From the IMG/VR virus record IMGVR_UViG_3300045988_090624: a stretch of DNA of 63,099 nt. One strand, given 5' to 3'. The stretch comes from a virus. Both the position numbers and the translations under genes were made by a program. This document shows, in pieces, positions 417-62,619 of this stretch; the first letter of the stretch is position 1, and each line of letters starts with the position of its first letter. The notes under the pieces are model-generated. The model worked only from the letters and a program-made list of their open reading frames with translations. It was not told the origin of the DNA and made no database searches.

Positions 417-459
417 GAGAGCTAAGGAGAAAAAAAAGTTTCTTTTTAGCTCTCTTTTT
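417..459 (+). terminator. Rho-independent terminator
   Basis: Stem GAGAGCTAA (417-425) pairs with TTAGCTCTC (446-454), followed by a T-run. Confidence 0.6.
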
Positions 460-491
460 GTCTAAAAAATCTTATATCTCTGGTTATCACT
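459..491 (+). promoter_or_regulatory. Conserved element A, copy 1 (TGTCTAAA-N15-GGTTATCACT), putative phage-specific promoter
   Basis: One of 12 + strand copies with fixed 23/24-nt register. It sits between a terminator and the RBS of 509..826. Confidence 0.55.
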
Positions 492-508
492 ATAAGGAGG
501 TGTAAGGC

Positions 509-826
509 ATGGAAGAGACTAAAAACGTGTGGATCTCAGATCAAGCGGCTGAGGTTTTAGAATATCTTAAGACTACTCACTATGAGGAAAGCATAGCGGT
601 AAAGAGTGGGGCAATATGTGAGTTATTTAATTTAAAGAAAGAGAGTCTGAGGGCTGTTGTAAATTGCCTGAGGAGTGACGGATACCCGGTTTGTAGTTCT
701 TGCCGTGGATATTGGTACTCAGAGAAGCCGGAGGATATTGATAAGACTTTAAAACATCTGGAGGGGAGGATCTCCGGGATGCAAAGGGCTATCACAGGAT
801 TAAAAAGGATCAGATCAGGAGAATAA
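509..826 (+). CDS. Hypothetical protein, possibly winged-helix DNA-binding
   Basis: AGGAGG RBS upstream. The function is guessed from size and charge pattern only. Confidence 0.6.
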   Translation: MEETKNVWISDQAAEVLEYLKTTHYEESIAVKSGAICELFNLKKESLRAVVNCLRSDGYPVCSSCRGYWYSEKPEDIDKTLKHLEGRISGMQRAITGLKRIRSGE

Positions 827-881
827 ACAGGAGAGACAGGAGCTTATAACTTTCTGTCTCTTTATTTTTGAGGAGGATAAC

Positions 882-1055
882 GTGTTTAAAGAGGGAGAAT
901 TGATAAAGTATATGATGCCTCTTGATGCTGATTACAGTTATGGAGTAATCACTGAGCTCAAGAAAGGGAGAGCTGAGGTAGTATTAAAATCTTATCCTCA
1001 AGGGCTGGTTGTTGAGGTTCCTTACAGAGTGATGGAACATATAAGAAAGAGGTGA
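882..1055 (+). CDS. Hypothetical small protein (57 aa, GTG start)
   Basis: AGGAGG at 871-876 and GTG at 882. The stop overlaps the next gene start. Too short for the ORF track. Confidence 0.45.
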   Translation: MFKEGELIKYMMPLDADYSYGVITELKKGRAEVVLKSYPQGLVVEVPYRVMEHIRKR

Positions 1056-1603
1056 TTAAGTTGGGAGCCGTGAGGGTAAAGACCACAAATGATAGATTGC
1101 TGGAGATTGATTACAGTGATACAGAGGCAGTAAAGAAAATAATATCAAGCTGGGGAATGGTGGAGAAACTGGCTGAGGGAGGAGATACAGTAGCCTCAGC
1201 TATATTAGTAGATCTACAGACAGCAATAGGGGTAAGTATTACAGAGTTCGGAGAAAATAAAAAGGTTGGCTTTGATGTAAGCCGGATCAACAGAGGAGTA
1301 TTAACAGAGGCTCAGTTTATTTCTCTGATCTATGTGTTAGGGCTGGGGTACAGACAGGATGAGATAGCTTATGTACTGGGCTGTACAAAACAGACGGTAA
1401 ATGTGCATATACAGAGAGCTCTTAAGAGGATCTGTAGATTTCTGGAAAAGGAGGACAATAAGGGTGAGAAGAATAAGAAAAAGAGAAGAAGATCCAGCCG
1501 ACAAGTGGCTAAGAGAGCACGATCCGTATTACACAAGCATGAGCCGGGGAAAGGCAAAGATGATAAAACATCCTTACCTCACTCCAGATCAGGAAGTAAG
1601 TAG
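1052..1603 (+). CDS. Sigma-70 region-4-like HTH protein, putative ArpU/RinA-type late transcription activator
   Basis: LTEAQFISLIYVLGLGYRQDEIAYVLGCTKQTVNVHIQRALKRI resembles sigma region 4.2. It lies upstream of the packaging genes, as in Firmicute phages. The basic low-complexity tail and the exact end are uncertain because an alternative-frame ORF (1401..1676) overlaps it. Confidence 0.55.
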   Translation: MIKLGAVRVKTTNDRLLEIDYSDTEAVKKIISSWGMVEKLAEGGDTVASAILVDLQTAIGVSITEFGENKKVGFDVSRINRGVLTEAQFISLIYVLGLGYRQDEIAYVLGCTKQTVNVHIQRALKRICRFLEKEDNKGEKNKKKRRRSSRQVAKRARSVLHKHEPGKGKDDKTSLPHSRSGSK

Positions 1604-1676
1604 GCAAAGAAAGGAGATCCCTATTACTTGTGTATCTAATGTAGATCTGGATTATTTGAACGTAACGAAACACTAA

Positions 1677-1714
1677 AGGCTGACTTTGTAGGAAGTATTT
1701 ACACTATATTTATG
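1677..1714 (+). promoter_or_regulatory. Conserved element B, copy 1 (AGGCTGAYTTTRTAGGAAGTA...ACAC.ATAT.TAT), putative late promoter
   Basis: 19 of the first 21 nt are identical to 12047..12067, and further matches follow downstream. It lies about 90 nt upstream of the ParB-like gene. Confidence 0.5.
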
Positions 1715-1770
1715 AAAGCTGTTTGAAGTAGTAGGAAGTAAAAAAGGAAGATTTAGGAGGTAGATTTACA

Positions 1771-2373
1771 ATGGATATGAAAGAAAGAGAAATACAGTAT
1801 TGTAACCCGGAGGAGCTGATCCCGTATGAGAAAAATCCCCGTGATAATCGTGCGGCTCTTGATGCTATAGAGCTGAGTATTGAGGAATATGGGTTTACTA
1901 ATCCTATTCTGGTAAATGAGGAGAAAGTGATTCTTGCCGGACATACCAGAAGAGAGGCGGCTATCTTAGCTGGGTTGGTGAAAGTTCCGTACATAGTAGT
2001 TGACGGACTTACAGAAGCTCAGCAGAAAGCCTATAGACTGGCAGACAATAAGTTATCAGAGTTGTCTATCTGGGATGAGGATTTACTCAAGGAAGAGCTG
2101 GAGGATCTGTTAGATGAGGACTATGATATTTCTCTTACTGGTTTCTCTGATGTAGATTTGACAGACATTTTAAAAGATGAGGAGGATCTGGAGGACATAG
2201 AGCCGGAGGAACCAAAAGAAAAGAAAACTACTCTCCCTATGCTGAGGTTTGGATCCAACAGTGTAAGGATTACACAGGATGAGTTAATCATGCTGAGTAA
2301 CAGATACAATGAGTATGTAGAGGCTGAGCCGGGAGAGGGATTTGTAACATGGCTGTTAAAGAGAGGTATCTGA
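1771..2373 (+). CDS. ParB N-terminal domain (ParB-like nuclease) protein
   Basis: NPRDN...ILAGHTRREAA...AYRLADNKL motifs are typical of ParB/Srx-fold phage proteins. The RBS is AGGAGG. Confidence 0.75.
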   Translation: MDMKEREIQYCNPEELIPYEKNPRDNRAALDAIELSIEEYGFTNPILVNEEKVILAGHTRREAAILAGLVKVPYIVVDGLTEAQQKAYRLADNKLSELSIWDEDLLKEELEDLLDEDYDISLTGFSDVDLTDILKDEEDLEDIEPEEPKEKKTTLPMLRFGSNSVRITQDELIMLSNRYNEYVEAEPGEGFVTWLLKRGI

Positions 2374-2374
2374 G

Positions 2375-2581
2375 ATGTATCATATAGATCATGATTGGAT
2401 AAGTAAAAGAGTAAACGGTCATGGAGCTTGTTATAGTTATAATTCTTCTAATGGTTTAGCTTTTATCTCATGGATTTATGGTGTGGGGAGATTAAGAGTA
2501 TTCTGGTATAATATCCAGTTATTTTTCCGGTACATGAAAAGACAGTGTGCCGAGAAAGAAGAGAATAAAGGGGAAAAATAA
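2375..2581 (+). CDS. Hypothetical protein (doubtful)
   Basis: The ORF starts 2 nt after the ParB stop. Its W/Y-rich composition is odd and no RBS is seen. Confidence 0.25.
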   Translation: MYHIDHDWISKRVNGHGACYSYNSSNGLAFISWIYGVGRLRVFWYNIQLFFRYMKRQCAEKEENKGEK

Positions 2582-2586
2582 GAATA

Positions 2587-2700
2587 ATGAGGTACAGATC
2601 CGGGGAAAGGAAAAGTACCTCATTTTATATTGCATAGCCTTATGAAATCCATAGAAATGAGGATGAAGAAATCCGGGGAAAAAGAGCATTGCCGGGGAAA
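2587..2700 (+). repeat. Hairpin plus three CCGGGGAAA direct repeats in a non-coding purine-rich tract
   Basis: ATGAGGTAC (2587-2595) pairs with GTACCTCAT (2614-2622). CCGGGGAAA occurs at 2600-2608, 2673-2681 and 2692-2700. Confidence 0.6.
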
Positions 2701-2931
2701 GAGAAAATACTGATAAATACAGGGATAAAAGCAGAAACAGTAATACCAAAAATAAAAGAAATAATGAGTAACATAGTAGTAAAGACATAAGAGGTAATAA
2801 AAGAATGTCACATTTTTAGAGCCTTTGAGCTAAATAGTATGAAATTTACATACATTTAAAGCAATTTTAAAGAGAACCCTCCCCAAAACAAAAGGGAGGA
2901 GTGAGTGAGGAGAAAGGAGGTTTAAAAGCTG

Positions 2932-3459
2932 ATGGTAGAGGAAAAAGGGCAGAATCAGGAGGCTGAGGCTCCAGTAGTGCCTAAGAAGAGCCAAAAAGAG
3001 ACAGAAGCTCAGAAAACAGCGTTTGAGCTTTACTATAACATGGGAGAAAAGAGATCCTTAGAGGCTGTAGCTAACAGTTGTGGTAAAAGTACCCGTACTA
3101 TAGGGGAATGGAGCCGTAAATTTCAGTGGAAAGACCGTATTTTACAGAAAGAAATTGAAGAAACAGCGGAAAAAGGCTCTACAGCTAATGCAGTATTGGA
3201 CGTAAAAGCAGAGTACAGAAAGGTTATCAGAGCCCTTGTAGCGGCGTTTGTAAAGGATTTTAAGGCTGGTAAGGTCAAGATTAAGAATATACAGGACTTT
3301 GAGAGAGTGGTTAAGCTGGATCTGTTACTCTTAGGAGATCCTACAGACAGGGTAGCTCAGGAGAATAAAGAGCAAGTAGAACTCACTGAGGAGGATAGAA
3401 AGGCTATTTTTGCTGTAGCTGACAGTATCAAAGAGGAGATGAAAGCCCTCAGGAGCTAA
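2932..3459 (+). CDS. terS: Putative terminase small subunit (HTH)
   Basis: The N-terminal segment ELYYNMGEKRSLEAVANSCGKSTRTIGEWSRKFQWKDR resembles HTH-type small terminases. It lies upstream of terL, although 3.2 kb of other genes intervene. Confidence 0.5.
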   Translation: MVEEKGQNQEAEAPVVPKKSQKETEAQKTAFELYYNMGEKRSLEAVANSCGKSTRTIGEWSRKFQWKDRILQKEIEETAEKGSTANAVLDVKAEYRKVIRALVAAFVKDFKAGKVKIKNIQDFERVVKLDLLLLGDPTDRVAQENKEQVELTEEDRKAIFAVADSIKEEMKALRS

Positions 3460-3546: not shown

Positions 3547-3579
3547 TGTCTAAAAATGGCATTTAAGGCGGTTATTACT
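3547..3579 (+). promoter_or_regulatory. Conserved element A, copy 2
   Basis: TGTCTAAA at 3547 and GGTTATTACT at 3570. The 18-mer GGTTATTACTGAGTGTAA is shared with copy 12. Confidence 0.55.
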
Positions 3580-6650: not shown

Positions 6651-6708
6651 GGCAAAGAGGGGCTCAAAAGGCTCCTCTTTTTAGTTCGTAAGAAAGGAGG
6701 ATATAAAG

Positions 6709-12046: not shown

Positions 12047-12084
12047 AGGCTGATTTTATAGGAAGTAAACACACATATGTATAG
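12047..12084 (+). promoter_or_regulatory. Conserved element B, copy 2, putative late promoter
   Basis: Matches 1677..1714. It lies after a terminator-like hairpin/T-run and about 105 nt upstream of the scaffold gene. Confidence 0.5.
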
Positions 12085-12152
12085 AGGGTTAAATGTAGAA
12101 AACCTACGGGGGTTTTACATCTTAAAACTTATAAAAAGGAGGATTTAATACA

Positions 12153-27073: not shown

Positions 27074-28975
27074 ATGGCACAGTATAAATCAGCGGTCATT
27101 ACTAAAAAGGGTGTAGCCCTGATGGGTAAGATTATGTCAGGAAAAACAAAACTTAATTTTAGTAAAATCTGTACATCTGATACTACTTACAAACAGGAAC
27201 AGTTAGCCGGACTTACATCCCTGACAGGGATTAAACAGGAGGCTCTGATTGCAGATATTACAAAGAAAAATGATGCTACTGTACAGGTAAGCACTCAGTT
27301 TTCTAATACGGCTCTTAAGACGGGCTATTATGTTAGAACTGTAGGACTTTATGCAGTAGATCCGGCTGAGGGAGATATCCTCTACAGTGTATGTATTGTA
27401 GATGAGTCAGTATCCACCCCGGACTATATGCCGCCTTATAATGGGGTTGGTGTATCATCCCTGATTATGAACATGGTAACTACTGTAGGAAATGCGGCAA
27501 ACGTAACAGTTACCGTAGATCCAGCGGCGGCGGCTACTGTATCTCAGGTTATTGATTTACAGAATCAGATTGATGATCTGAAAGGCTATACAGGTTACAT
27601 GGATGAGGATATTTATGGAGTTGAGGTAGACTTTGTAAATAAGAAATGTACCCGTTTAGCTGGAGCTGTAGGACATTCAGAGGGAGAGTTTTTCGATAGC
27701 CTTACCCCGTGGGGAGGTAGAAAGAGAGTTATCCTTTCTGATGATGGCTATGAGCTGGGATCTTATGGGGATCCTCAGTACACAGAAACCGGAAAGCTGG
27801 TACAGGCGGTAAATGTAGAAATCACTCCGGCTAATGGAGAATCTACTCCGGCGGTAACTAAAAACTTCCCTGTAGGTACTCTGGTACAGGTTATGGTAAA
27901 ACAGCCTAAGTTTTGGGTTAAGGTTGTACCTCTCTCAATGAGTAAAGCCTCTTATGGTAGAGGTTATCAGTTTGATAAAGCCCGTTACTATGTATCTCCT
28001 GTAGCTAAGCCGGGATTTATCGTTATTGATGAATTTAAGGCGGCTAATGGACAGGAACAGGATTTCATTTACCTCTCAGCTTTTGAGGGATCTCTGTATG
28101 ATACCTCTGAGGGTGCATATATTCTGGATGATGCTCAGGTAGCAGACTTTACAGCCTCTACAGGAGATAAGCTCTGTAGTATTGCCGGAGCTAAACCAGC
28201 CTCAGGTAAAACTCAGAGCCTTACAAGAAAGAACACAAGAGCTCTTGCAGATAACAGAAATACAGGAGTTGAGGCAGACAACACAGCCGGAGGAAAGGGA
28301 TGGAGATTGCATAATATCTTTGCTCTCTCAGTAACTCAGATCCTCTTAATGGTTGAGTATGCTCACCTTGATGCTCAGGCTAAGGTTGGTAGAGGTAACT
28401 GTGATAATACAGATGATGGAGCCTCTAACATGGCTATCAATACAGGCGGTACAAGTGCTCTTGGTAACAAGTCTGGTATTGATCCGACAGGCACAAATGG
28501 AAAATGTTGTGTTTCTTACAGAGGAGAAGAAAACCTCTGGGGAAATATTTGGACATGGTTGGATGGAATTAACATTGAGTGTAAAAATATTCAGAACGCT
28601 TATGTTAATCCTGATAACCTGACTATGGCTGATGATACAAAAGAGAACTACCAGAACACAGGCTTTACAATGGCAAAAGCTGGCGGTTATGTAAGTAAGT
28701 TTGGATATGATGAGGCTCACCCTTATCTTTTCCTCCCGTCAGAAACTAAAGGCTCCAGTAACTTTGTGGGTGCTTACCATTGGTGTAATGCGGCTTATGA
28801 TGGCTTTCTGGTTGCTCGGCTTGGCGGTAGGTGGAGTGATGGCGGTAGTTGCTCGCCTTTCTATCTGCATGTGGTTAATGCCTCGGGTTCTCGTGATCGT
28901 TATATCAGCGGTCGGTTGCTGTATGTACCTCAGGCAGATAAGCCTAAATACCTTTATAAGGTTATGGCGGCTTAA
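27074..28975 (+). CDS. Tail fibre / receptor-binding protein and DGR target
   Basis: The N-terminus resembles a tail-collar fibre (MAQYKSAVITKKG...YVRTVGLYAVDP). The C-terminus ...GGRWSDGGSCSPFYLHVVNASGSRDRYISGRLLYVP contains the variable repeat. Confidence 0.85.
   Translation: MAQYKSAVITKKGVALMGKIMSGKTKLNFSKICTSDTTYKQEQLAGLTSLTGIKQEALIADITKKNDATVQVSTQFSNTALKTGYYVRTVGLYAVDPAEGDILYSVCIVDESVSTPDYMPPYNGVGVSSLIMNMVTTVGNAANVTVTVDPAAAATVSQVIDLQNQIDDLKGYTGYMDEDIYGVEVDFVNKKCTRLAGAVGHSEGEFFDSLTPWGGRKRVILSDDGYELGSYGDPQYTETGKLVQAVNVEITPANGESTPAVTKNFPVGTLVQVMVKQPKFWVKVVPLSMSKASYGRGYQFDKARYYVSPVAKPGFIVIDEFKAANGQEQDFIYLSAFEGSLYDTSEGAYILDDAQVADFTASTGDKLCSIAGAKPASGKTQSLTRKNTRALADNRNTGVEADNTAGGKGWRLHNIFALSVTQILLMVEYAHLDAQAKVGRGNCDNTDDGASNMAINTGGTSALGNKSGIDPTGTNGKCCVSYRGEENLWGNIWTWLDGINIECKNIQNAYVNPDNLTMADDTKENYQNTGFTMAKAGGYVSKFGYDEAHPYLFLPSETKGSSNFVGAYHWCNAAYDGFLVARLGGRWSDGGSCSPFYLHVVNASGSRDRYISGRLLYVPQADKPKYLYKVMAA
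28801..28929 (+). repeat. DGR variable repeat (VR)
   Basis: A 129-nt gapless alignment to 29058-29186 shows 24 mismatches, all at adenines of the other copy. Confidence 0.92.
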
Positions 28976-29011
28976 GGCTGAGGAAAAATAAAATTGAATA
29001 TTGATTGAACA

Positions 29012-29038
29012 ATAGGGAGCCTTTCAGCTCCCTATTTT
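29012..29038 (+). terminator. Rho-independent terminator after the tail-fibre gene
   Basis: ATAGGGAGC (29012-29020) pairs with GCTCCCTAT (29027-29035), followed by TTTT. Confidence 0.6.
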
Positions 29039-29057
29039 CATAGGTCACTAATAGAGT

Positions 29058-29186
29058 TGGCTTTATAGTTACTCAACTTGGCGGTAAATGGAATAATGGC
29101 AGTAATTGCTCACCTTTCTATCTGAATGTGAATAATACCTCAGGTAATCGTAATCGTAATATCAGCGGTCAGTTGCAATATGTACC
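29058..29186 (+). repeat. DGR template repeat (TR)
   Basis: This non-coding copy of the VR is A-rich. It has nine AAT codons when read in the VR frame and 38 adenines, 24 of them substituted in the VR. Confidence 0.92.
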
Positions 29187-29405
29187 CTTGTGAAAAGCAA
29201 GAAAAATTTGAAAATACTGGGATTTAGTGACCTTGCCTCTTGGCAGAACATAAAACAGACGGGAGCCTCCCGGACTGGGTAAAAAGTATGTAAAGGGGTA
29301 CTGATAAGGGGATTGAATAATCCTTGAAATACCGTTTAGGGATACCAATAAAGGTCGGTTCCCCTTTGGTACATACAAAAAATTTAACAGGGTTGGTAAA
29401 AATAA
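29187..29405 (+). ncRNA. Putative DGR spacer RNA region between the TR and the RT gene
   Basis: A 219-nt non-coding tract on the + strand with short local stems, e.g. CGGGA-gcc-TCCCG. The role is inferred by analogy with characterised DGRs. Confidence 0.4.
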
Positions 29406-33481: not shown

Positions 33482-33502
33482 TCCAAAAGGGTTATTTTGA
33501 GA

Positions 33503-33540: not shown

Positions 33541-33573
33541 TGTCTAAATTTCAGGAGATTTCTGGTTATTACT
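33541..33573 (+). promoter_or_regulatory. Conserved element A, copy 3
   Basis: TGTCTAAA at 33541 and GGTTATTACT at 33564. Confidence 0.55.
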
Positions 33574-33591: not shown

Positions 33592-33619
33592 TTTACATAG
33601 TATCAAAAAGATGTATAAT
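33592..33619 (+). promoter_or_regulatory. Sigma-A-type promoter upstream of the integrase gene
   Basis: TTTACA-N16-TATAAT. The 17-mer CAAAAAGATGTATAATA is shared with the promoter at 56219..56246. Confidence 0.6.
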
Positions 33620-35323: not shown

Positions 35324-35357
35324 TGTCTAAAATCTCAATGCCTCTTTGGTTATTACT
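35324..35357 (+). promoter_or_regulatory. Conserved element A, copy 4
   Basis: TGTCTAAA at 35324 and GGTTATTACT at 35348 (24-nt register). Confidence 0.5.
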
Positions 35358-37504: not shown

Positions 37505-37583
37505 CAAAGATTAATCTATTAAAATATAAAAATAAATCAAAGATTTATTTTAGAGAGGAGTTCAAAAACTTTTCTTTTTTTTT

Positions 37584-39639: not shown

Positions 39640-39677
39640 TTTTGGGGGGAGTATAAAAGCTCTCCTCATTTTTTTTT

Positions 39678-39710
39678 TGTCTAAAAATCAGAGATTAGCT
39701 GGTTATTACT
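39678..39710 (+). promoter_or_regulatory. Conserved element A, copy 6
   Basis: TGTCTAAA at 39678 and GGTTATTACT at 39701. Confidence 0.55.
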
Positions 39711-42009: not shown

Positions 42010-42042
42010 TGTCTAAATATTCACCTCTTTTAGGTTATCACT
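42010..42042 (+). promoter_or_regulatory. Conserved element A, copy 7
   Basis: TGTCTAAA at 42010 and GGTTATCACT at 42033. It is preceded by the palindrome AAGAATTTTAAAATTCTT. Confidence 0.55.
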
Positions 42043-43134: not shown

Positions 43135-43152
43135 AGGAGCCTTATGGCTCCT
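43135..43152. terminator. Bidirectional hairpin between convergent genes
   Basis: AGGAGCC pairs with GGCTCCT. The repressor stop codon lies in the loop. Confidence 0.5.
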
Positions 43153-43528
43153 CTCCCTTAAGCTCAAGTATTCTTTGAGCTATCCCTTTGAGTAGGATTA
43201 GATCTTGCTCCTCCAGCTTAACTACTTGTTTAAATAACTCATAAAGTGAGGTATTACTTTCAAGTAGCTTTGCAAGTATCACTGGATCAGATGAGGTAGA
43301 TTGTTTCTTTTGGTAAGGATCGGACATTAGATCTGTAGTATCAATGTGGAAATAGTTAGCTAACATTTCTATTTTGTCCATTCTTGGAAACATCTTTCCG
43401 TTAATCCATTGAGATATTGTGGGGGAGCTGATGTTAAGATCCCTGATTAGATCTTGTTGACGTTTTCCATTGATGCTCATGTAATACTGTAGTGCTTTAG
43501 GAAACGCTGATTTAGGATCTGTACTCAT
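43142..43528 (-). CDS. CI-like XRE-family repressor (the only convincing minus-strand gene)
   Basis: The HTH is QQDLIRDLNISSPTISQWINGKMFP. The preferred start is ATG at 43528 (MSTDPKS...), preceded by GAGGGGG. The track ORF extends to 43639 through a low-complexity leader. Confidence 0.8.
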   Translation of the reverse strand: MSTDPKSAFPKALQYYMSINGKRQQDLIRDLNISSPTISQWINGKMFPRMDKIEMLANYFHIDTTDLMSDPYQKKQSTSSDPVILAKLLESNTSLYELFKQVVKLEEQDLILLKGIAQRILELKGEEP

Positions 43529-43562
43529 ATTTTTCACCCCCTCTCTATCAAGGGATAAGTAT

Positions 43563-43591
43563 ATTATACAGTAGAACAAAGAAAAAGTAAA
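43563..43591 (-). promoter_or_regulatory. Leftward sigma-A-type promoter for the repressor gene
   Basis: On the minus strand: TTTACT-N17-TATAAT. Confidence 0.5.
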
Positions 43592-43740
43592 GTTAAACAA
43601 AGAAAAAGTTTTGCTAAACTTAAATATTTTTATTGACATCTTTGTTTAACTGAGATATTATGTGTGTTGAGGGGCGGTTTACCCCGTACCTCATATTATT
43701 TTACCTAAAATTCTTTGTTAAACAAAGATTGAAACAAAGA
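43575..43740. promoter_or_regulatory. Operator array of AACAAAGA half-sites (six copies, including a perfect palindrome)
   Basis: AACAAAGAAAAAGT occurs at 43575 and 43596, 21 nt apart. An inverted TCTTTGTT lies at 43639-43646 inside the rightward promoter spacer. The palindrome TCTTTGTTaAACAAAGA is at 43712-43728, and a further copy is at 43733-43740. Confidence 0.7.
43633..43661 (+). promoter_or_regulatory. Rightward early sigma-A promoter
   Basis: TTGACA-N17-TATTAT, with an operator half-site in the spacer. Confidence 0.7.
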
Positions 43741-43775
43741 ATTTTAAATAAAAACAAAATAAGGAGGATGCAGAG

Positions 43776-44156
43776 ATGGAATTAACAACACTCTACAAAC
43801 AGTACAGAGCCGCAAAACTGGCGGCAGATCAGGCGGCAAAAGAAGAGGACAAGCTCAAGAAAGCCCTCAAGAAAGCAATGGAAGAAGCCGGAGTTAAAAA
43901 CTACACAGATGAGGACGGTTTTCTCTTTGAGAGAATTGTTCAGAACAGAAAGAGCATGGACGAAAAGGGTGTGCTGGAGAGCCTCAAAGAGAAAGGACTT
44001 ACTCAGTGTATCAAGACAGTTGAGGCAGTAGATGAGCCTCAGGTACTTAAGGCTATTGAAGCCGGGGAGTATTCCGCTGAGGAGCTCCAGAAATACCTCA
44101 CAGTCAAAGAGGTTGTGATGTTGAAACTCACAGATCCGGCAAAAGTCAAGAAATGA
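43776..44156 (+). CDS. Hypothetical protein (first gene of the rightward operon)
   Basis: Strong RBS AAGGAGG. Confidence 0.6.
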   Translation: MELTTLYKQYRAAKLAADQAAKEEDKLKKALKKAMEEAGVKNYTDEDGFLFERIVQNRKSMDEKGVLESLKEKGLTQCIKTVEAVDEPQVLKAIEAGEYSAEELQKYLTVKEVVMLKLTDPAKVKK

Positions 44157-45166
44157 TAACTGTCTGGAATACTCCCATAGCGGCAAGCGTGGAGCAGATC
44201 CTCAGGGATCTCAAGCTCATGCTTTTCGCTGAGGGGTTACTCAGGGATCAGAACAATACCGGATCTGATGTGATGGTTACTTGTCCATTCCACAAGGGAG
44301 GGCATGAAAGAAAGCCCTCCTGTGGTGTGAGCCTCAAGGAAAAGATAACGCCGGATAAAACCTATGAGGCTGGTACAGTCCACTGTTACACCTGTGGGTA
44401 TACCGCTGACCTCCCTACTTTTATCAGTGATCTGTTAGGGATGGGAAACCCTATGGAGGGTTTTAAGTGGCTGGTAGGACATTACAACTACTCAGCAAAT
44501 GACCGGGAAGAGATTCAGTTTAATTTCTTCCGGGGAACTGATGAGGGACAGGTAGCCGCTATGGATGAGGGAGAGGTTGAGGAGTATCACAAGAACCTTT
44601 TGAGAAGTTCAAAAGCTCAGAACTATCTCAGGGGGAGATGTATAAGCCGGGATGTGATGGAGATTTACAACTTAGGTTTTGATCCAGCGGATGAGGTGGT
44701 CTTATTCCCGGTCTACTCCAGAAAGGGAGATGTGCTCTTTTACAAGAGCCGCTCACTGGTGGGAAAGCACTTCTTTAATGCAAAGGACATAGACAAGACC
44801 GCCGCTGTTTACGGACTCTATCAGACCTTAGAGGCAAAGATCCCGGACAGTACAGAGATCTGGTTAGTGGAAAGTGAGATAGATGCTCTGAGCCTTGTTT
44901 CTAAAGGTATTTTAGCGTGGGCTTTCATGGGATCGGATATCTCAGAAAAGCAGATTAAGGAAATGTGTCAGAGCCCTTATAGGAGATTTGTCATAGCTAC
45001 AGACAATGACGAAGCCGGGAGGAAAGTGGCAAGACGGATAAAAGACAAGCTCATACCTTTAGGCTTTCGCTTTTTTAATCTCAAGTGGCTTACAGATCTC
45101 AAGGATGTAAATGAGCTGATTCAGAATTACGGAGATGATTTTGAGGATTATCTCCAAAGGTATTAA
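44153..45166 (+). CDS. dnaG: DNA primase (CHC2 zinc finger plus TOPRIM)
   Basis: The zinc finger is CPFHKGGHERKPSC...CYTCGY. The TOPRIM motifs are LVESEIDALS and ATDNDEAGRK. Confidence 0.8.
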   Translation: MITVWNTPIAASVEQILRDLKLMLFAEGLLRDQNNTGSDVMVTCPFHKGGHERKPSCGVSLKEKITPDKTYEAGTVHCYTCGYTADLPTFISDLLGMGNPMEGFKWLVGHYNYSANDREEIQFNFFRGTDEGQVAAMDEGEVEEYHKNLLRSSKAQNYLRGRCISRDVMEIYNLGFDPADEVVLFPVYSRKGDVLFYKSRSLVGKHFFNAKDIDKTAAVYGLYQTLEAKIPDSTEIWLVESEIDALSLVSKGILAWAFMGSDISEKQIKEMCQSPYRRFVIATDNDEAGRKVARRIKDKLIPLGFRFFNLKWLTDLKDVNELIQNYGDDFEDYLQRY

Positions 45167-45182
45167 ACAGGAGGAAAACAGG

Positions 45183-45794
45183 ATGAGAACAGGATTATAT
45201 AAAGGATTAAGCAATGAGGAACTGGTAGAACTGTACAAGGCTGGAGATACAGAGGCTTTTGATGAGCTGATGAAAAAGACTGAGGCACTGAGAAGCTCTT
45301 TAGCTCAGAGATACTTAAACATTCCGGGTAGTGAGTTTGAGGATCTGATGAGTGAGGGAGCTATAGAGATGCTCTCAGCTATCCAGAATTTTGACAGAAA
45401 AAACTACAGCTCCTCTTTTAGCACGTTTTTGTACTCAGCTATCTCCCGTCATTATAACGATATGTTTACAGCGGCGGTTTGTGAAAAGAGAAATCCGGGC
45501 TGTTTTGTACAGAGCTATGAACAGGTTAATTCTAACTCAGAATATGAGGAAGATGGAGACAGCTTAGGATCATCTGAGTTCTCTGTAGAGTGCGAAGATT
45601 ACAGCATGGTAGAGATTAGAGATCTTATAAGCAGACTCAAGCTCTCAAATACTGAGAGAATCGTGGTTAATCTCCTGATGGCTGGAAACAGCAAGCCGGA
45701 CATTGCCCGGAAACTGGGAGTAAAAACCCCGTCTGTACATAACTACGTTAAGCGTATCGGAACAAAAATAAATTTAGCTGGTGCATATGTCTAA
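45183..45794 (+). CDS. Phage-encoded sigma-70-family sigma factor
   Basis: Region-2-like AFDELMKK...FEDLMSEGAIEMLSAIQNFD and region-4 HTH SKPDIARKLGVKTPSVHNYVKRI. ATG at 45183 follows AGGAGG. Confidence 0.75.
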   Translation: MRTGLYKGLSNEELVELYKAGDTEAFDELMKKTEALRSSLAQRYLNIPGSEFEDLMSEGAIEMLSAIQNFDRKNYSSSFSTFLYSAISRHYNDMFTAAVCEKRNPGCFVQSYEQVNSNSEYEEDGDSLGSSEFSVECEDYSMVEIRDLISRLKLSNTERIVVNLLMAGNSKPDIARKLGVKTPSVHNYVKRIGTKINLAGAYV

Positions 45795-45821
45795 AAAACA
45801 GCCTCCTCTCTGGTTAATACT
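45788..45821 (+). promoter_or_regulatory. Conserved element A, copy 8 (overlaps the sigma gene stop codon)
   Basis: TGTCTAAA at 45788 and GGTTAATACT at 45812. Confidence 0.45.
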
Positions 45822-46855: not shown

Positions 46856-46890
46856 TGAGGGGTAAAAGTAATAGCCCCTCATTTTTTTTT
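46856..46890 (+). terminator. Rho-independent terminator
   Basis: TGAGGGG pairs with CCCCTCA, followed by T9. Confidence 0.7.
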
Positions 46891-49373: not shown

Positions 49374-49375
49374 GT

Positions 49376-49724: not shown

Positions 49725-50088
49725 TACAGATAATTTACAGGCTGGAGATAAAGTGGTAGTAGTTATCAGTGATACTTTCTCAGGAATTGGAAAGTATATA
49801 GGTACAGTTATAAAGAAAACTCCCTCAGGGATGGTAGATGTTAGGTGTTGTGGTGATATTTCCAGATATAAAAGAGATGGGGATGAGTATGGTAAGAGAG
49901 ATCCGTATAGTAGGCGGCGAAAGTATCTGATAGAATCTACAGAGGAAGAACAGAAGAAAATAGCTTTACAGAGAAAGAGATCTCAGATGGAGGCATATCT
50001 TAAAGATTATAAATATGCTGATCTCAGTTATGAAGATCTGGAAAATGTTTATAAGATGCTGGAGGCATTAAAGGAAAAGAGCTCATAA
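49717..50088 (+). CDS. Hypothetical protein
   Basis: Co-directional and followed by a terminator. Confidence 0.55.
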   Translation: MFSTDNLQAGDKVVVVISDTFSGIGKYIGTVIKKTPSGMVDVRCCGDISRYKRDGDEYGKRDPYSRRRKYLIESTEEEQKKIALQRKRSQMEAYLKDYKYADLSYEDLENVYKMLEALKEKSS

Positions 50089-50103
50089 GGGCTCTTTTTT
50101 TTT
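50077..50103 (+). terminator. Rho-independent terminator overlapping the stop codon
   Basis: AAGAGC pairs with GCTCTT, followed by a T-run. Confidence 0.55.
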
Positions 50104-50108: not shown

Positions 50109-50142
50109 TGTCTAAAAAAGCCGTTTTTTTTTTGTTATTACT
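50109..50142 (+). promoter_or_regulatory. Conserved element A, copy 9 (degenerate: TGTTATTACT)
   Basis: TGTCTAAA at 50109, 24-nt register. Confidence 0.45.
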
Positions 50143-50169: not shown

Positions 50170-51171
50170 ATGAACATAGGGCTAATTGATGTTGATTCAC
50201 ATAATTTTCCTAACTTGCCGCTTATGAAACTATCTCAGTATCATAAAAGTATAGGTGATTCAGTGGAGTTTGTACAATGGGGTGAGGAAGATAAAAGACC
50301 TGTAAGTAAATATTATGATAAGGTTTATATGAGTAAGGTATTTACAGAGAGTAAGGATCCTACTGGTGAGATTAGATGTGGAGAGTTGGTTAGAGGTGGA
50401 TCCGGTTATGATTTGATAAATAGCTTACCTGATGAGGTAGAGCATATTTACCCTGATTACTCTTTATATCCAGATTATAAATTTGCTCTTGGATTTCTTA
50501 CCCGTGGCTGTCCCCGGTGTAATCATACATTTTGTATAACTCCTAAAAAAGATGGGGCAGTATCAAGAAAGGTAGCAGATCTTACAGAGTTTTGGAGAGG
50601 TCAGGAGGAGATAATCTTATTAGATCAAAACTTGTTAGCGTGTAAAGACAGGCTATATTTATTGGATCAGTTAGCAAGATCAAAGAGTTATGTAGAGTTT
50701 AATGGGGGACTTGATATAAGATATTTAACTCCTGAGGTAGCGGTGTTACTTAAAAGGATCAAAATGAAAGATTTACATTTTGCATGGGATGATCCGAAAG
50801 AGGATTTATATGAGAAATTTGTTTATTTCAAGTCAGCTAAAATATTTTCTCCTCATAATACTGGGGTGTATGTTTTAGTAAATTATTGGAGCTCAATAGA
50901 AGAGGATCTTTACAGAGTTGAGAAGTTAAAAGAGCTTGGGTATGCTCCTTTTGTAATGATCTATGATAAACAGTGTTTTGTTGATAGTAAAGGGAGATGG
51001 TTAAGGGGCATAGAGGATAAATTTACCACAGAACAATTAAGACATTTTAAAATCTGTCAGCATTTACAAAGGTGGTGTAATAGCCGGGCAATATCAAAAA
51101 GCTGTAGGTTTGATGAGTATTTACCTTACTTAAGATGGATAGAAAAAGGGAAACCAGTACCGGGGATCTGA
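50170..51171 (+). CDS. Radical-SAM-like / B12-binding-like protein with an atypical Cys motif
   Basis: The N-terminal Rossmann-like segment is IGLIDVD...LMKLSQYHKSIGDSVEF, followed by FLTRGCPRCNHTFC. That spacing is CxxCxxxxC, not the canonical CxxxCxxC. Confidence 0.35.
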   Translation: MNIGLIDVDSHNFPNLPLMKLSQYHKSIGDSVEFVQWGEEDKRPVSKYYDKVYMSKVFTESKDPTGEIRCGELVRGGSGYDLINSLPDEVEHIYPDYSLYPDYKFALGFLTRGCPRCNHTFCITPKKDGAVSRKVADLTEFWRGQEEIILLDQNLLACKDRLYLLDQLARSKSYVEFNGGLDIRYLTPEVAVLLKRIKMKDLHFAWDDPKEDLYEKFVYFKSAKIFSPHNTGVYVLVNYWSSIEEDLYRVEKLKELGYAPFVMIYDKQCFVDSKGRWLRGIEDKFTTEQLRHFKICQHLQRWCNSRAISKSCRFDEYLPYLRWIEKGKPVPGI

Positions 51172-51189
51172 AAGGATCCCTTTTCTTTT
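51162..51189 (+). terminator. Rho-independent terminator
   Basis: GGGATC pairs with GATCCC, followed by a T-rich run. Confidence 0.55.
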
Positions 51190-51222
51190 TGTCTAAATTT
51201 CTTTTCAGATCTGGTTATCACT
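51190..51222 (+). promoter_or_regulatory. Conserved element A, copy 10
   Basis: TGTCTAAA at 51190 and GGTTATCACT at 51213. Confidence 0.55.
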
Positions 51223-56218: not shown

Positions 56219-56246
56219 TTGACATATTAACAAAAAGATGTATAAT
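56219..56246 (+). promoter_or_regulatory. Sigma-A-type promoter
   Basis: TTGACA-N16-TATAAT. It shares CAAAAAGATGTATAATA with the integrase promoter. TATAATATCT is also repeated at 56208. Confidence 0.65.
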
Positions 56247-56292: not shown

Positions 56293-56829
56293 ATGAGATA
56301 TAAAAATAGTGATGATAACAGATACAGAGTACAGTTTATGGTAGCAACAGAGAAACTTATGGATCAGCTTACAGTTAAAGAGTTTATCTCTTATCTGGAA
56401 GAAAATGCAGAGTTTGAAGATTATACAGTAGAGTACATTGACGGAAAATGTGTTAATTGTAGAGCTTATGATCTTAAAGAAGCTGACAGCAATTTACACA
56501 AAGAGTTCTTAGTAACAGAGGACGATAGAGTATTTTACTGGAGATCATTAAATTGTAAGGTTGAGTTAGTAGACCGGGAGGAAAAGATGGAAATTAAAAG
56601 ATTAAAAAATGTTAAGTTTGGTACAAAGGAGCTCCATGTGGTTGTTACAGGTTGGGCTTTCTATGTAAAAGGTAAAGGCTATATAGCTTACAGCTCAAAT
56701 AGAGATAAATATGGTATCTTAGCCCCTTATATTCCTTGTGGAGGGAAAAGAGCTTTACAGGCTATCTTAAATGCCGGAGGATTTACCAGTTTTGAGGGTA
56801 TGGAATATGTAAAGGAGTTGGGAGCCTGA
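56293..56829 (+). CDS. Hypothetical protein
   Basis: RBS GGAGG. First gene after the sigma-A promoter. Confidence 0.6.
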   Translation: MRYKNSDDNRYRVQFMVATEKLMDQLTVKEFISYLEENAEFEDYTVEYIDGKCVNCRAYDLKEADSNLHKEFLVTEDDRVFYWRSLNCKVELVDREEKMEIKRLKNVKFGTKELHVVVTGWAFYVKGKGYIAYSSNRDKYGILAPYIPCGGKRALQAILNAGGFTSFEGMEYVKELGA

Positions 56830-57404: not shown

Positions 57405-57840
57405 AAGAGAGGAACTGTATAAGAAAATCTATAAAAACAGTCCGGCTATAGATCCTGTAGTAAGTCTTATGAATAAAACAGACTGGGTAACAGGAGATCC
57501 TTTTGAGAAACTGGAGGCACTGAGAGAGCTTAATACAGATCTCTCAGACCTCTATCAAGTATCTATACCGGTTATAACAGTCTGGGTAAGGGATGATAAC
57601 TATGTACAGGCTACAGGAGAGATCTATCTTACTGAGCCTGATCTTGAGAGTTTCTTACATCAGTTCAGACACCACTTGCAGAACATAGAGAGAAAGTATG
57701 AGAGGCGTGGGCTGACCGCTGAGGGAGCCGGGAGAGAATACTGGAGAGTACCATATCAGGACTGTATATACAGAATGTATGGAGAGGATGATAGTAGGGC
57801 GTGGGCTCGTTTTGTGATTGATACGGCGGTAAATAAGTAG
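57391..57840 (+). CDS. Hypothetical protein
   Basis: Overlapping start. Co-directional. Confidence 0.5.
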   Translation: MRIDEREELYKKIYKNSPAIDPVVSLMNKTDWVTGDPFEKLEALRELNTDLSDLYQVSIPVITVWVRDDNYVQATGEIYLTEPDLESFLHQFRHHLQNIERKYERRGLTAEGAGREYWRVPYQDCIYRMYGEDDSRAWARFVIDTAVNK

Positions 57841-57846
57841 TATAAT
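57818..57846 (+). promoter_or_regulatory. Sigma-A-type promoter for the secreted-protein gene
   Basis: TTGATA-N17-TATAAT, overlapping the 3' end of the upstream gene. Confidence 0.6.
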
Positions 57847-57883: not shown

Positions 57884-58387
57884 ATGAGTAAGAAAATTTT
57901 AGCTGTAGTGTTATCAGTAGCGTTAAGTGTGCCTTTTGGTACTACAGTAATGGCTCAGGAAGATAACTCAAAAAGAATTGCAGAGATTGAGGCTCAGATT
58001 GCAGAATTACAAGCAGAGCTAAAGGAACTGAAAGGAGAAGAGGCTGAGAATGGGGTATTGTATCAGGATGATCTCTTATCTATTACCTATGATGGAATGA
58101 AAGAGAGCAATATGGGATACAAGGTTAATTTTGTGATAGAAAATACCTCAGATCAGAAACTCACAGTACAGGTTAGAGATACGTCCATTAACGGGGTTAT
58201 GATAGATCCTATGTGTTCTATAGAGGTTGCTCCGGGAAAGAAAGCTAAGGACGGTTTTACAGTCTTTGGGGAAGATGCTGAGGAAAATCCTATGGATGAT
58301 GTAGAAAATATAGAGACAAAATTCCACATAATCAAGGGTGATGGATTTTCAGATTACATAGATACAGACAATATTGTAATTAAATAA
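57884..58387 (+). CDS. Secreted protein (signal peptide, coiled coil, beta-rich domain); moron candidate
   Basis: MSKKILAVVLSVALSVPFGTTVMA/QED looks like a Sec signal peptide. AEIEAQIAELQAELKELKGEE is a coiled coil. Confidence 0.65.
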   Translation: MSKKILAVVLSVALSVPFGTTVMAQEDNSKRIAEIEAQIAELQAELKELKGEEAENGVLYQDDLLSITYDGMKESNMGYKVNFVIENTSDQKLTVQVRDTSINGVMIDPMCSIEVAPGKKAKDGFTVFGEDAEENPMDDVENIETKFHIIKGDGFSDYIDTDNIVIK

Positions 58388-58400: not shown

Positions 58401-58432
58401 AGGAAGATCTTTAGAGATCTTCCTTTTTTTTT
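58401..58432 (+). terminator. Rho-independent terminator
   Basis: AGGAAGATCT pairs with AGATCTTCCT (10 bp), followed by T10. Confidence 0.8.
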
Positions 58433-58465
58433 TGTCTAAAAGTTGAGGAGATTCTGGTTACTACT
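58433..58465 (+). promoter_or_regulatory. Conserved element A, copy 11
   Basis: TGTCTAAA at 58433 and GGTTACTACT at 58456. The downstream CTCTATGAGAA is shared with copy 7. Confidence 0.55.
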
Positions 58466-58581
58466 CTATGAGAAAGGAGTTGAGGCAGTAAATGAGAGTC
58501 TGGACTGGGTAAAAAGGAGATCATGATTAAGTTAAAGCGGATCCGTCAAAATATAAATAATAACCTGTAGGAGGGTATGAG

Positions 58582-60565: not shown

Positions 60566-60786
60566 TGAAAAGAGGAGAATACTACAGAGGAAGAAATGGG
60601 AGAAAGTACGGGATCTGGAATACAGCAAAGAAATGTTTTCAGTTCGGTATATCTGAGGACAGCCCTATGTTAGCTGAGGCAAGACTCTTTTATATGATTG
60701 GTGATGATGCCCGTAAGTGGAGATTTACAGTAAAAGCAATACCTGTAGAAGAGGTGGGAAAGTATGAACACAAGAAAGCTGAGTGA
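60565..60786 (+). CDS. Hypothetical protein
   Basis: Stop/start overlap (TAATG) with the previous gene. Confidence 0.5.
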   Translation: MKRGEYYRGRNGRKYGIWNTAKKCFQFGISEDSPMLAEARLFYMIGDDARKWRFTVKAIPVEEVGKYEHKKAE

Positions 60787-61192
60787 TAAACAGGAGAAAA
60801 GGCTTGCAAAGAACATAGGAGGGAGACAGGTGATAGGATCCGGCTCTACTCCTTTCCTGAAAGGGGATGTAATTACCTCAGATCTCTTTATAGAGGCAAA
60901 GACAAAGGCAGTAGAGAGTAAATCTATCTCAGTTAAAAAAGCGTGGTTAGAAAAGGCTCAGGAGCAAGCCTACAGCATGAGAAAGAAAGACTATGCTTTA
61001 GCTATCTCTTTTGGAGATGGGAAAGACTATTATGTGATTGAGGATAGTCTTATGGAGGATCTATATAAGAGTAGAGCGGCTCTGGAGGCTGTAATTGAGT
61101 CTCTGGGAGGCTTAGAGGATCCGTTAGTGGATTTACCAGATTTGAAAGCAAAAGGTGTAAGAGCGTTGATAAGGAGGAAACTGAGGCAATGA
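60764..61192 (+). CDS. Putative PD-(D/E)XK endonuclease (resolvase-like)
   Basis: GSGSTPFLKGDVITSDLFIEAKTK has a D...ExK pattern. Confidence 0.4.
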   Translation: MNTRKLSDKQEKRLAKNIGGRQVIGSGSTPFLKGDVITSDLFIEAKTKAVESKSISVKKAWLEKAQEQAYSMRKKDYALAISFGDGKDYYVIEDSLMEDLYKSRAALEAVIESLGGLEDPLVDLPDLKAKGVRALIRRKLRQ

Positions 61193-61350
61193 GTAAAGAG
61201 TGGTGGGGAGATGATGATAAGTGTGGAGAGTGCATTTATAACAAGTATGACAATAGAGAAAAATGTTATATTTGCTCCAATAAAGAAAGTGAAAACTACG
61301 GGCTTATGACAGCCTATGATGATTGTTGTGAGGAGTATGAGAGGAGATAA
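61189..61350 (+). CDS. Small Cys-rich protein (53 aa)
   Basis: ATGA overlap. CGEC...CYIC...CC. Too short for the ORF track. Confidence 0.4.
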   Translation: MSKEWWGDDDKCGECIYNKYDNREKCYICSNKESENYGLMTAYDDCCEEYERR

Positions 61351-61351
61351 T

Positions 61352-61519
61352 ATGGCTGAGGAAATGGTAACAATGGTAGATAACAGGAACCTGAGAGCTA
61401 TTATACATAATATTACAGGAGGAGTCTTTCTTACAAAGGCTGAGTATATTGAGATCTGTAAAATCATTGATGGAGCTTGTGAGAGAAGTATCCGGGAAGA
61501 GATGGGAGGAGTTGTATGA
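61352..61519 (+). CDS. Hypothetical small protein (55 aa)
   Basis: ATG at 61352 after GAGGAG is preferred over the longer track ORF. Confidence 0.4.
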   Translation: MAEEMVTMVDNRNLRAIIHNITGGVFLTKAEYIEICKIIDGACERSIREEMGGVV

Positions 61520-62064
61520 GTAAAAATAGAACATGGTTAAGTCATGGTATGTTATATGAGTTCAAGGGCTGGCTGGTAATGAATGGCTGGAAATTAGAGA
61601 AGCCCGTAGGAGAGTATGAAGTCCTGAGAGCAAGGCACTCTCAGAGAAAAAGACCTCTGTTAGTTTATGACAGAACCTCAGGAGGGTGTGGTTATAGCAT
61701 TGATATGAGGGATAAAGATGTAATTCAGGATTATCATGAGTACAGAGAAAAACAGGGAAAACCCTCTATCCATGCAGTACCTCAGTTAATGGAGACTTAT
61801 GAGAGAGACAGGTTAGAGGAGCCTGTGGTGGTCTTTGAGTGTGTTGAGGCGTATTCAGTACCTATGGTGGATGGTAATGATTTTGTAATAGAAAATGAGT
61901 ATATTCACATAAAGACAGGATCTTTGTGGGAGCTTGATCTTAGAGATATTTTACATGAGATCCTTAGTATTTCAGATGTTAGATTAACGGATCAGGATGG
62001 TAAGTGGATACAGATTACATGGGAAAGTTTACAGGAGTATTTTGTAGGTGTAAAGATTAAATAG
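61516..62064 (+). CDS. Hypothetical protein
   Basis: Overlapping start. Co-directional. Confidence 0.55.
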   Translation: MSKNRTWLSHGMLYEFKGWLVMNGWKLEKPVGEYEVLRARHSQRKRPLLVYDRTSGGCGYSIDMRDKDVIQDYHEYREKQGKPSIHAVPQLMETYERDRLEEPVVVFECVEAYSVPMVDGNDFVIENEYIHIKTGSLWELDLRDILHEILSISDVRLTDQDGKWIQITWESLQEYFVGVKIK

Positions 62065-62077
62065 GAGGATTATAAAC

Positions 62078-62536
62078 ATGGCATTTTTACATAAAATAAG
62101 TGGTTATCTGGTAGATATAAATGAGGAGTATTTTGAGGAGGATATTGTAACAGAGCTTGAGGAGCGGCTGGATTTGAGCTCTCAACATTTACACGTTGAG
62201 ACAGCAGAGGTAGAGGGCTGGGATGATGAGAACCCACTCAACTATAGAAATTGTGATCTTGCAGAGTGTGAGAAGTATTTTAAAGCAAATGTACATAAGG
62301 TAGACAATAATAGAAAAGTAAAGCCGGGGCAAATATGGAAACACTTTAAGACCGGGAAAAAAGTAAGGATATTAGCTGTATCTCAGGATACAGAGAGCGT
62401 AGGTAGTTACAGTGTAGTTTATGTGTGTACAGATGGCAAGGTCTGGCATAGACCTTTATGGATGTTCTTATCTGAGGTGGATCACAATAAATACCCTGAT
62501 GCGAAACAATTATACAGATTTGAATTAGTTGAGTAA
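62078..62536 (+). CDS. Protein with a C-terminal DUF1653-like domain
   Basis: KPGQIWKHFKTGKKVRILAVSQDTES...VVYVCTDGKVWHRPLWMFLSEV resembles DUF1653. Confidence 0.55.
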   Translation: MAFLHKISGYLVDINEEYFEEDIVTELEERLDLSSQHLHVETAEVEGWDDENPLNYRNCDLAECEKYFKANVHKVDNNRKVKPGQIWKHFKTGKKVRILAVSQDTESVGSYSVVYVCTDGKVWHRPLWMFLSEVDHNKYPDAKQLYRFELVE

Positions 62537-62586
62537 TCCGTGAGGAAGTGTAAGAGAGAAATCTTTTACACTTTTTCTTTTTGTTA

Positions 62587-62619
62587 TGTCTAAATTTTGA
62601 GGAGTAAATGGTTATTACT
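62587..62619 (+). promoter_or_regulatory. Conserved element A, copy 12
   Basis: TGTCTAAA at 62587 and GGTTATTACT at 62610. Confidence 0.55.

Follow-up and report, generated by a model that had tools for sequence, protein, structure and literature searches.

The subject of this analysis is a viral sequence of 63,099 nucleotides, IMG/VR record IMGVR_UViG_3300045988_090624 (the window, by which we mean the whole of this stretch), and within it a two-box intergenic element present in 12 copies, all on the plus strand, with the pattern TGTCTAAA-N15/16-(G/A/T)GTTA(T/A/C)(T/C)ACT. We consider these elements as candidate promoters, and a sigma factor encoded at 45183-45794 as the protein that may read them. 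Nearly all genes in the window are on the plus strand. Both of its ends (6-155 and 63005-63099) lie inside one 27-nt tandem-repeat array, and the gene that starts at 62662, the product of which contains G-x-x-GASSATG-type repeats, reads across the junction between them; the shared array and the gene across the junction thus indicate a complete (circular) genome, in which the assembly was opened inside the repeat. The phage encodes a set of replication proteins (SNF2 helicase, DnaC-like loader, DnaB, primase, PolA, RecA and SSB), three proteins of nucleotide metabolism (MazG, a nucleotide kinase and thymidylate synthase), and a large serine integrase, a Cas4-like nuclease, radical-SAM proteins, terminase and portal. 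A DNA search of deposited phages returned no close relative, with coverage of 3% only; relatives were found in a Blautia metagenome-assembled genome and in numerous viral contigs from the human gut. The window is the complete 63-kb genome of an uncultured temperate phage of Lachnospiraceae.

Anatomy and placement of the two-box element

The window has 13 occurrences of the first box, TGTCTAAA, whereas shuffles predict 3.8; 12 of the 13 are on the plus strand, and the thirteenth, on the minus strand at 32387, lacks the second box. Every plus-strand copy is followed by NGTTANNACT after 15 or 16 nt, a composite that appears 0.00 times in 100 dinucleotide-preserving shuffles. The first-pass annotation, made from the letters of the window alone, had listed 12 plus-strand copies with a second box 23 or 24 nt further on, and our scan returned exactly the same positions, with the second box present in each case. 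When three mismatches were allowed, no extra plus-strand copy of the two-box element was detected in the window, and the class is thus sharply bounded.

All 12 copies fall within the intergenic fraction of the genome, which by a simple gene map is 7.2%, a placement with a chance probability of about 2e-14. Copy 8 is the only partial exception, as it shares 7 nt with the 3' end of the sigma gene, the TAA stop codon of which is inside box 1, as had been reported at first pass. There are 30 gaps of at least 50 nt between genes, of which 12 contain the element. Each copy has the same orientation as its downstream gene and is positioned 5' of the ribosome-binding site, with 17-116 nt separating the end of box 2 from a start codon that is served by a Shine-Dalgarno sequence (SD). 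Directly 5' of eight copies there is a hairpin (-13.8 to -22.4 kcal/mol) with a T-run, which bears out the earlier statement that most copies follow such structures; behind these terminators transcription has to restart. The bias towards the early or replication half, also claimed at first pass, is confirmed, as ten copies are located there and the element is absent between 3.6 and 33.5 kb. The copies and the units that they precede are as follows.

459-491, plus strand: copy 1, spacer 15; directly 3' of terminator 416-455; heads unit 509-3459, which contains a sigma-4-like gene (1052-1603) and a terS-like gene
3547-3579, plus strand: copy 2, spacer 15; no terminator 5'; heads the MazG, nucleotide kinase and thymidylate synthase genes, after which come the large terminase (TerL) and portal genes
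33541-33573, plus strand: copy 3, spacer 15; 3' of terminator 33502-33531; 5' of the serine integrase gene
33592-33619: sigma-A-type promoter TTTACA-16-TATAAT, between copy 3 and the integrase gene
35324-35357, plus strand: copy 4, spacer 16; 5' of the SNF2 helicase gene; same site kept in the related loci L008 and L142
37584-37617, plus strand: copy 5, spacer 16; box 2 AGTTATTACT; 3' of a weak terminator, 37553-37583; heads small genes and an O-like replication initiator gene
39678-39710, plus strand: copy 6, spacer 15; 3' of terminator 39643-39668; heads the DnaC-like loader and DnaB helicase genes
42010-42042, plus strand: copy 7, spacer 15; 5' of a Rha/anti-repressor-like gene
45788-45821, plus strand: copy 8, spacer 16; box 2 GGTTAATACT; heads a small gene and the SSB and PolA genes
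50109-50142, plus strand: copy 9, spacer 16; box 2 TGTTATTACT; 3' of terminator 50070-50103; 5' of a radical-SAM gene
51190-51222, plus strand: copy 10, spacer 15; 3' of terminator 51162-51181; heads the unit running from the Cas4-like exonuclease gene to the RecA gene
58433-58465, plus strand: copy 11, spacer 15; box 2 GGTTACTACT; 3' of terminator 58401-58424; leader of 116 nt before a radical-SAM/NrdG-like unit
62587-62619, plus strand: copy 12, spacer 15; 3' of terminator 62542-62577; heads the repeat-containing gene from 62662, which wraps round to the start of the window

In the leader of copy 11 (58466-58581) two mini open reading frames with SDs, encoding MRVWTG and MIKLKRIRQNINNNL, each up to a stop codon, precede the radical-SAM gene, and this leader may be subject to leader-peptide regulation.

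None of the 12 element sites is listed by a sigma-70 promoter scan, and ten of the 12 element-bearing gaps contain no other promoter candidate. Canonical sigma-A promoters are present elsewhere in the window, at 33592 (integrase), 43633, 56219 and 57818, which implies that the housekeeping consensus of the host looks canonical and that the element sites do not match it. Indeed, with hexamers 16-17 nt apart the element agrees with the sigma-A consensus at 3/6 + 3/6 positions and the -11 A is missing, which places it outside the sigma-A class. With respect to the sigma-A promoters themselves, that at 56219-56246 (TTGACA-16-TATAAT, 12/12) is located 5' of gene 56293-56829, and that at 57818-57846 (11/12) 5' of gene 57884-58387, both genes being of unknown function; the two promoters lie inside an otherwise element-driven region, and the two genes may be expressed in the lysogen (morons).

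At first pass TTGTCT and TATYAC had been read as the hexamers, giving a spacer of 21-22 nt. The distance is correct for these hexamers, but the argument built on it, that the spacer is too long, depends on this choice of register, as the register TCTAAA/GTTAYY gives a spacer of 16-17 nt. Such a spacer is standard for sigma-70-family promoters. In the shortest leaders, those of copy 1 in the window (...CACTataAGGAGG) and, with similar sequence, copies 4 and 6 of L142, the SD starts 3-5 nt past box 2, and this would put the start site at or just 3' of the conserved ACT. This geometry agrees with a position of about -12 to -7 for GTTAYY. The element thereby has the boxes, spacer, orientation and placement of a two-box sigma-70-family promoter, and a sigma factor with both sigma-2 and sigma-4 domains is encoded by the same phage; we infer that this protein, the product of 45183-45794, is the cognate sigma of the element.

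It could be argued that the elements are not promoters but DNA sites, bound by a repressor or acting as a roadblock, or RNA sites for antiterminator loading or processing, possibilities that had also been raised at first pass. Terminators with no element behind them, before PolA and TerL, do hint at some antitermination. The element, however, lacks dyad symmetry and is strictly confined to one strand; RNAalifold over the 12 copies gave no consensus structure (0 pairs), and an Rfam search of the whole window returned 0 hits, the search for tRNAs being likewise negative. In addition, the eight copies 3' of terminators would seldom be transcribed unless they were themselves start sites, and the shortage of other promoter candidates in the element-bearing gaps argues in the same direction. 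Sites of a non-promoter kind are thus disfavoured, and we consider this explanation quite improbable.

The phage sigma factor and its operon

The region that includes the sigma gene has the following features.

45183-45794, plus strand: phage sigma factor, 203 aa; a sigma-2 and a sigma-4 domain with a disordered linker between them; proposed reader of the element
43633-43661, plus strand: early sigma-A-type promoter TTGACA-17-TATTAT, in the gap that separates the repressor gene from the sigma operon
43776-45794: sigma operon, comprising 43776-44156, primase (44153-45166) and sigma (45183-45794)
43142-43639, minus strand: candidate helix-turn-helix (HTH) repressor, XRE/RstR/DicA-like, divergent from the early promoter

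The product of 45183-45794 matches Pfam Sigma70_r2 and a GerE/region-4 HTH, and scores 50.3 bits against TIGR02937 (sigma-70 family), for which the curated cut-off is 42.9. The best named models are those of SigH, with 53 bits against SigH equivalog cut-offs of 208-415, and the protein thus lies outside the SigH equivalogs. Its nearest sequences in the PDB are sigma F, sigma H and sigma E/W. The AlphaFold model (pLDDT 75) consists of two helical domains separated by a disordered linker of 37 residues, and in a Foldseek search its best matches were Bacillus subtilis SigH, SigD, Escherichia coli sigma E and AlgU, all of the matches listed being sigma factors. The protein is thus a real two-domain sigma, at the border of groups 3 and 4. 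A tblastn search with the sigma against deposited phages identified no close relative, the best match being an unannotated faecal contig (L139) with 31% identity, and the sigmas of Bacillus phages matched over region 2 only.

Between the early promoter at 43633-43661 and the sigma gene no plus-strand terminator is listed. The sequence TTGACA-17-TATxAT is found about 1.5 kb 5' of the sigma gene in eight of nine members of the phage family to which the window belongs, and in no family member is the twelve-copy element present between the Rha unit and the sigma stop codon. As the sigma operon lacks the element and is located behind a sigma-A promoter, the sigma would be made by the host sigma-A holoenzyme and would not depend on itself. 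The region 43540-43775 represents the lysis-lysogeny switch; it includes a minus-strand TTTACT-17-TATAAT at 43591-43563, and a GC hairpin is present in the early leader. The 11-mer GTTAAACAAAG occurs at 43592, at 43640 (as the reverse complement, in the promoter spacer) and at 43717 (as part of a palindrome), and these copies are probably operators, possibly of the 43142-43639 repressor.

Relatives and the second sigma-like protein

Loci around sigma homologues were taken from IMG/VR, GTDB genomes and public assemblies. Identity of the sigma to that of the window is 87% in L008, 73% in L009, 66% in L016, 64% in L145, 58% in L144, 57% in L147, 56% in L146, 54% in L012/L013 and 51% in L142. Throughout this range, from 87% to 51%, gene order is kept, and wherever the fetched DNA covers the site the element is kept before the same genes, namely those for the SNF2 helicase, the MIQLNFLNA protein, the loader, Rha, the small gene after the sigma and the Cas4-like protein. 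The first-pass annotation had named absence from related phages with the same genes as an outcome that would count against its promoter proposal; the element is present there. In the more distant sigma homologues L015, L139 and L018-L024 no element was detected, and its range thus ends at roughly 50% sigma identity.

What is kept at these orthologous sites is the pair of boxes. The spacers are unrelated, those of copy 6 reading cagagattagc, ccggggatagt, gaggaggtgatgg and caggtgtgatttt in four relatives, and their length flips between 15 and 16 nt, the copy 6 orthologues in L016 and L142 having 16. Among 99 distinct instances in the fetched DNA (matches with one and with two mismatches allowed, anywhere in the two boxes), G2, C4, T5, A6 and A7 of box 1 are invariant, and variation is confined to position 3 (T/C) and, rarely, positions 1 and 8. 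In box 2, G2, T3, T4, A8 and C9 are invariant; positions 1, 6 and 7 vary, with isolated changes at positions 5 and 10, A5 and T10 deviating in at most two of the 99 instances. The information content at the centre of the spacer is about 0 bits, and the spacer is always 15 or 16 nt long. The family consensus is TGYCTAAA-N15/16-NGT(T/A)A(T/A)(T/C)ACT. At position 1 of box 2 the closer lineages have G, L142 has C at five of five sites, and L147 is mixed; a clean covariation of this position with the sigma lineage was tried as a candidate and rejected, as L147 is mixed.

These data also bear on the view that the copies are what is left of an intergenic repeat or mobile element, or that they arise by chance or from base composition. 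Some pairs of copies (2 and 12, 7 and 11, 5 and 10) do share extra likeness in their flanks, downstream similarities that the first-pass annotation had described and that are indeed present. Only the two boxes, however, are common to all copies; the unrelated spacers, the zero count in shuffles and conservation at orthologous sites across deep divergence make an origin of this kind hardly credible.

A scan of 2.9 million viral contigs (IMG/VR) with the exact pattern returned 115 stretches. The multi-hit contigs that could be checked for the two sigma-like genes (the 45183-45794 and 1052-1603 types) all have one or both, the remaining multi-hit contigs being short fragments, and single matches occur roughly at the estimated chance level. 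A chimeric sigma homologue, in which region 4 is nearly the same and region 2 is different, is encoded in L140 (2275-2886), L141, L143, L017 (10001-10588) and L011; it sits in a different mobile element, beside LMWPc and NikA-like genes. In L017 and L011 there is one motif-like site, TGTCTAAA-N16-AGTTATTATA, about 1.4 kb downstream of the chimeric sigma. As a guide to the -10 box these five loci proved uninformative. A literature search for the motif string gave only unrelated primer matches, and no paper on the phage group or the motif was found.

The first-pass annotation had put forward the phage sigma as the plausible reader. That a complete sigma is encoded agrees with this proposal, but a second sigma-like protein, which could in principle be the reader, had been overlooked. 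This protein and a second, rarer motif are located as follows.

1052-1603, plus strand: second sigma-like protein, 183 aa; only a sigma-4-type HTH recognizable; candidate late activator
1678-1718, plus strand: second motif, copy A, GGCTGAYTTTRTAGGAAGTA...ACAC.TAT..TAT; 3' of the sigma-4-like gene; candidate late promoter
12048-12088, plus strand: second motif, copy B; 3' of a terminator; heads the capsid-to-tail block; candidate late promoter

The 1052-1603 product matches Pfam Sigma70_r4_2 and the PHROG category 'sigma factor', and has a basic, disordered tail. A fold search gave weak matches only (E at least 0.08), all to sigma-4 domains, and neither sequence nor fold searches revealed a recognizable sigma-2 domain. 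The gene is inside the unit headed by copy 1, 5' of the terS-like gene, and is conserved in this phage family; the promoter scan detected no sigma-A promoter for the gene. The second motif is present in two copies against 0.02 expected, and both are kept in relatives. The motif at 1678 and 12048 would be the more natural target of the 1052-1603 protein. A late tier that acts through the second motif would explain why the twelve-copy element is missing between 3.6 and 33.5 kb.

The elements could thus be promoters with a different reader, either the 1052-1603 protein, as an activator or sigma appropriator, or a host sigma such as SigD, SigH or one of the extracytoplasmic function (ECF) group. 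The first candidate has a sigma region 4 HTH and is present in the same phage family as the element and, since both sigma-like proteins are found in that family, co-occurrence does not discriminate between the two candidate readers. The 1052-1603 protein, however, has no recognizable sigma-2 domain and has a plausible target of its own, and its gene is in an element-headed unit for which no sigma-A promoter was found, such that as the reader it would need itself for its expression. With respect to the host sigmas, the CTAAA-N15/16 geometry recalls SigD/sigma-28 promoters, but box 2 matches neither GCCGATAA nor GAAT -10 elements, and the regulon of a host sigma would be expected to extend to unrelated phages of the same hosts, whereas the multi-copy matches are confined to this family. 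We therefore regard a reader other than the phage sigma as unlikely, albeit less so than sites that are not promoters at all.

A candidate middle promoter class and its known counterparts

From sequence comparison and structure prediction we propose that the 12 elements are probably phage-specific promoters of a middle class, read by the host core polymerase in combination with the 45183-45794 sigma; the narrower claim, that they are promoters of some kind, we hold with somewhat greater confidence. We infer both that transcription starts at the elements and that the phage sigma, rather than another factor, reads them. The notion of a promoter class that is peculiar to the phage and is read by its own sigma, advanced at first pass, thus gains from the strand and intergenic placement of the element, its free spacer, the conserved synteny, the two-domain structure of the sigma and the sigma-A-headed operon from which this protein would be produced.

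After induction, host polymerase containing sigma-A would start at the repressor-controlled promoter 43633-43661 and transcribe the three-gene operon that ends in the sigma gene. The SigH/ECF-like phage sigma would then take the place of sigma-A on the host core polymerase, its sigma-4 domain contacting box 1 (TGYCTAAA) as the -35 element and its sigma-2 domain contacting box 2 (core GTTAYY) as the -10 element, 16-17 bp apart. Transcription would begin about 0-5 nt 3' of the conserved ACT. This would turn on a dozen units, comprising replication, recombination, nucleotide metabolism, the integrase, the first packaging-side unit and the sigma-4-only protein, most of them (8/12) insulated from the preceding unit by an intrinsic terminator.

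It should be emphasized that several observations weigh against this proposal. A protein of the 1052-1603 type co-occurs with the element in the same family. Position 1 of box 2 (G versus C) appears to be a lineage bias that does not cleanly track the divergence of the sigma, and the chimeric homologue with the same region 4 resides in another mobile element with at most one motif-like site. Strong terminators, each a hairpin with a T-run, directly precede the ribosome-binding sites of PolA (terminator 46857-46890) and TerL (terminator 6656-6682) with no promoter motif after them; the element thus does not explain all restart of transcription, and read-through or antitermination is needed at these sites. 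Finally, the conserved ACT and a downstream CAGTG have no counterpart role in the promoter model.

A broader scheme, which we put forward tentatively and with the odds somewhat against it, is a three-tier cascade resembling that of SPO1, in which sigma-A would give way to the phage sigma at about 12 middle promoters, and these in turn to the sigma-4-only protein acting at a second promoter class for the packaging and virion genes.

The window also contains a diversity-generating retroelement (27074-30602), consisting of a variable repeat (28801-28929), a template repeat (29058-29186) and a reverse transcriptase gene (29406-30602; Pfam RVT_1), which comes next after the template repeat. The template repeat, of 129 nt, has 81% identity to the 3' end of the upstream gene, which encodes 633 aa, and all 24 mismatches are at template adenines (17 A to G, 4 A to T and 3 A to C). 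The 633-aa target may be a tail fibre.

The sigma cascade of SPO1 assigns the middle role to gp28 and the late role to gp33/34 (PMC9429907). The phage described here resembles SPO1 in that the sigma gene would be expressed early through host sigma-A, core polymerase would be redirected to repeated two-box promoters and the middle genes include one for a further factor. The correspondence with SPO1-type middle transcription is at the level of architecture only, as tblastn revealed no homology to gp28, and SPO1 is a large, strictly lytic myovirus, whereas the window, of 63 kb, is that of a temperate phage which encodes an integrase and a repressor. The SPO1 middle consensus, AGGAGA/TTTNTTT, is also unlike the element.

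The SigH (Spo0H) and ECF sigmas provide the best HMM, sequence and fold matches to the 45183-45794 protein, and share with it the sigma-2 and sigma-4 domains, the flexible linker and a strict promoter spacer. The SigH consensus is AGGAWWW/GAAT and that of ECF sigmas is of the AAC/CGT type, and the element matches neither. The clostridial group-5 sigmas (the BotR/TcdR group) recognize a -10 element of GTTATA/GTTAAT (PMC4031146), and there is thus precedent in Clostridia for a sigma-2 domain that reads a -10 element of the GTTA type. Indeed the TcdR-related sigmas of this group (BotR, TetR, UviA and TcdR) are small two-domain proteins of Clostridia, often carried on mobile elements, and their -10 element is close to the core of box 2 (GTTAYY/GTTAAT). 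In group 5, however, the -35 element is TTTACA and region 4.2 contains SRQ, whereas here box 1 is TGYCTAAA and the aligned segment, KTPSVHNYVKR, lacks SRQ; the 45183-45794 sigma thus does not belong to group 5. Moreover, group-5 sigmas drive one or two toxin or bacteriocin operons, as against a dozen phage units in the window.

RinA is a small activator of phage late genes (PMC3152322). The small sigma-4-like proteins RinA, ArpU and LtrC, encoded near terS and acting as late-gene switches, resemble the 1052-1603 protein with its two-copy motif. In these systems there is one late promoter, 5' of terS, whereas the element described here has 12 sites, ten of them in the replication half, and so does not fit the type; in a search of NCBIfam no RinA or ArpU model was hit. 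The system is thus not of the SigH, group-5, sigma-28 or RinA type; its architecture is SPO1-like, with an unrelated sigma and a new consensus.

Phage sigmas with promoter classes of their own are textbook knowledge for lytic phages such as SPO1 and T4. We found none described in temperate phages of the dominant gut Firmicutes. The strategy is therefore a known one, and no new principle is revealed. What this study adds is a promoter class, its probable reader and a sigma-A switch that can be read from sequence and are kept over a whole uncultured phage family. Together they provide a testable map of the lytic programme of a Blautia/Ruminococcus prophage, and a rule by which the transcription units of related phages from metagenomes can be annotated. 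For the engineering of Lachnospiraceae they also offer a candidate orthogonal sigma/promoter pair, the consensus of which is defined and for which the fetched DNA supplies 99 distinct natural variants. If the three-tier cascade is true, the phage would furnish a sigma/promoter system, compact and orthogonal, for gut Clostridia that resist genetic manipulation.

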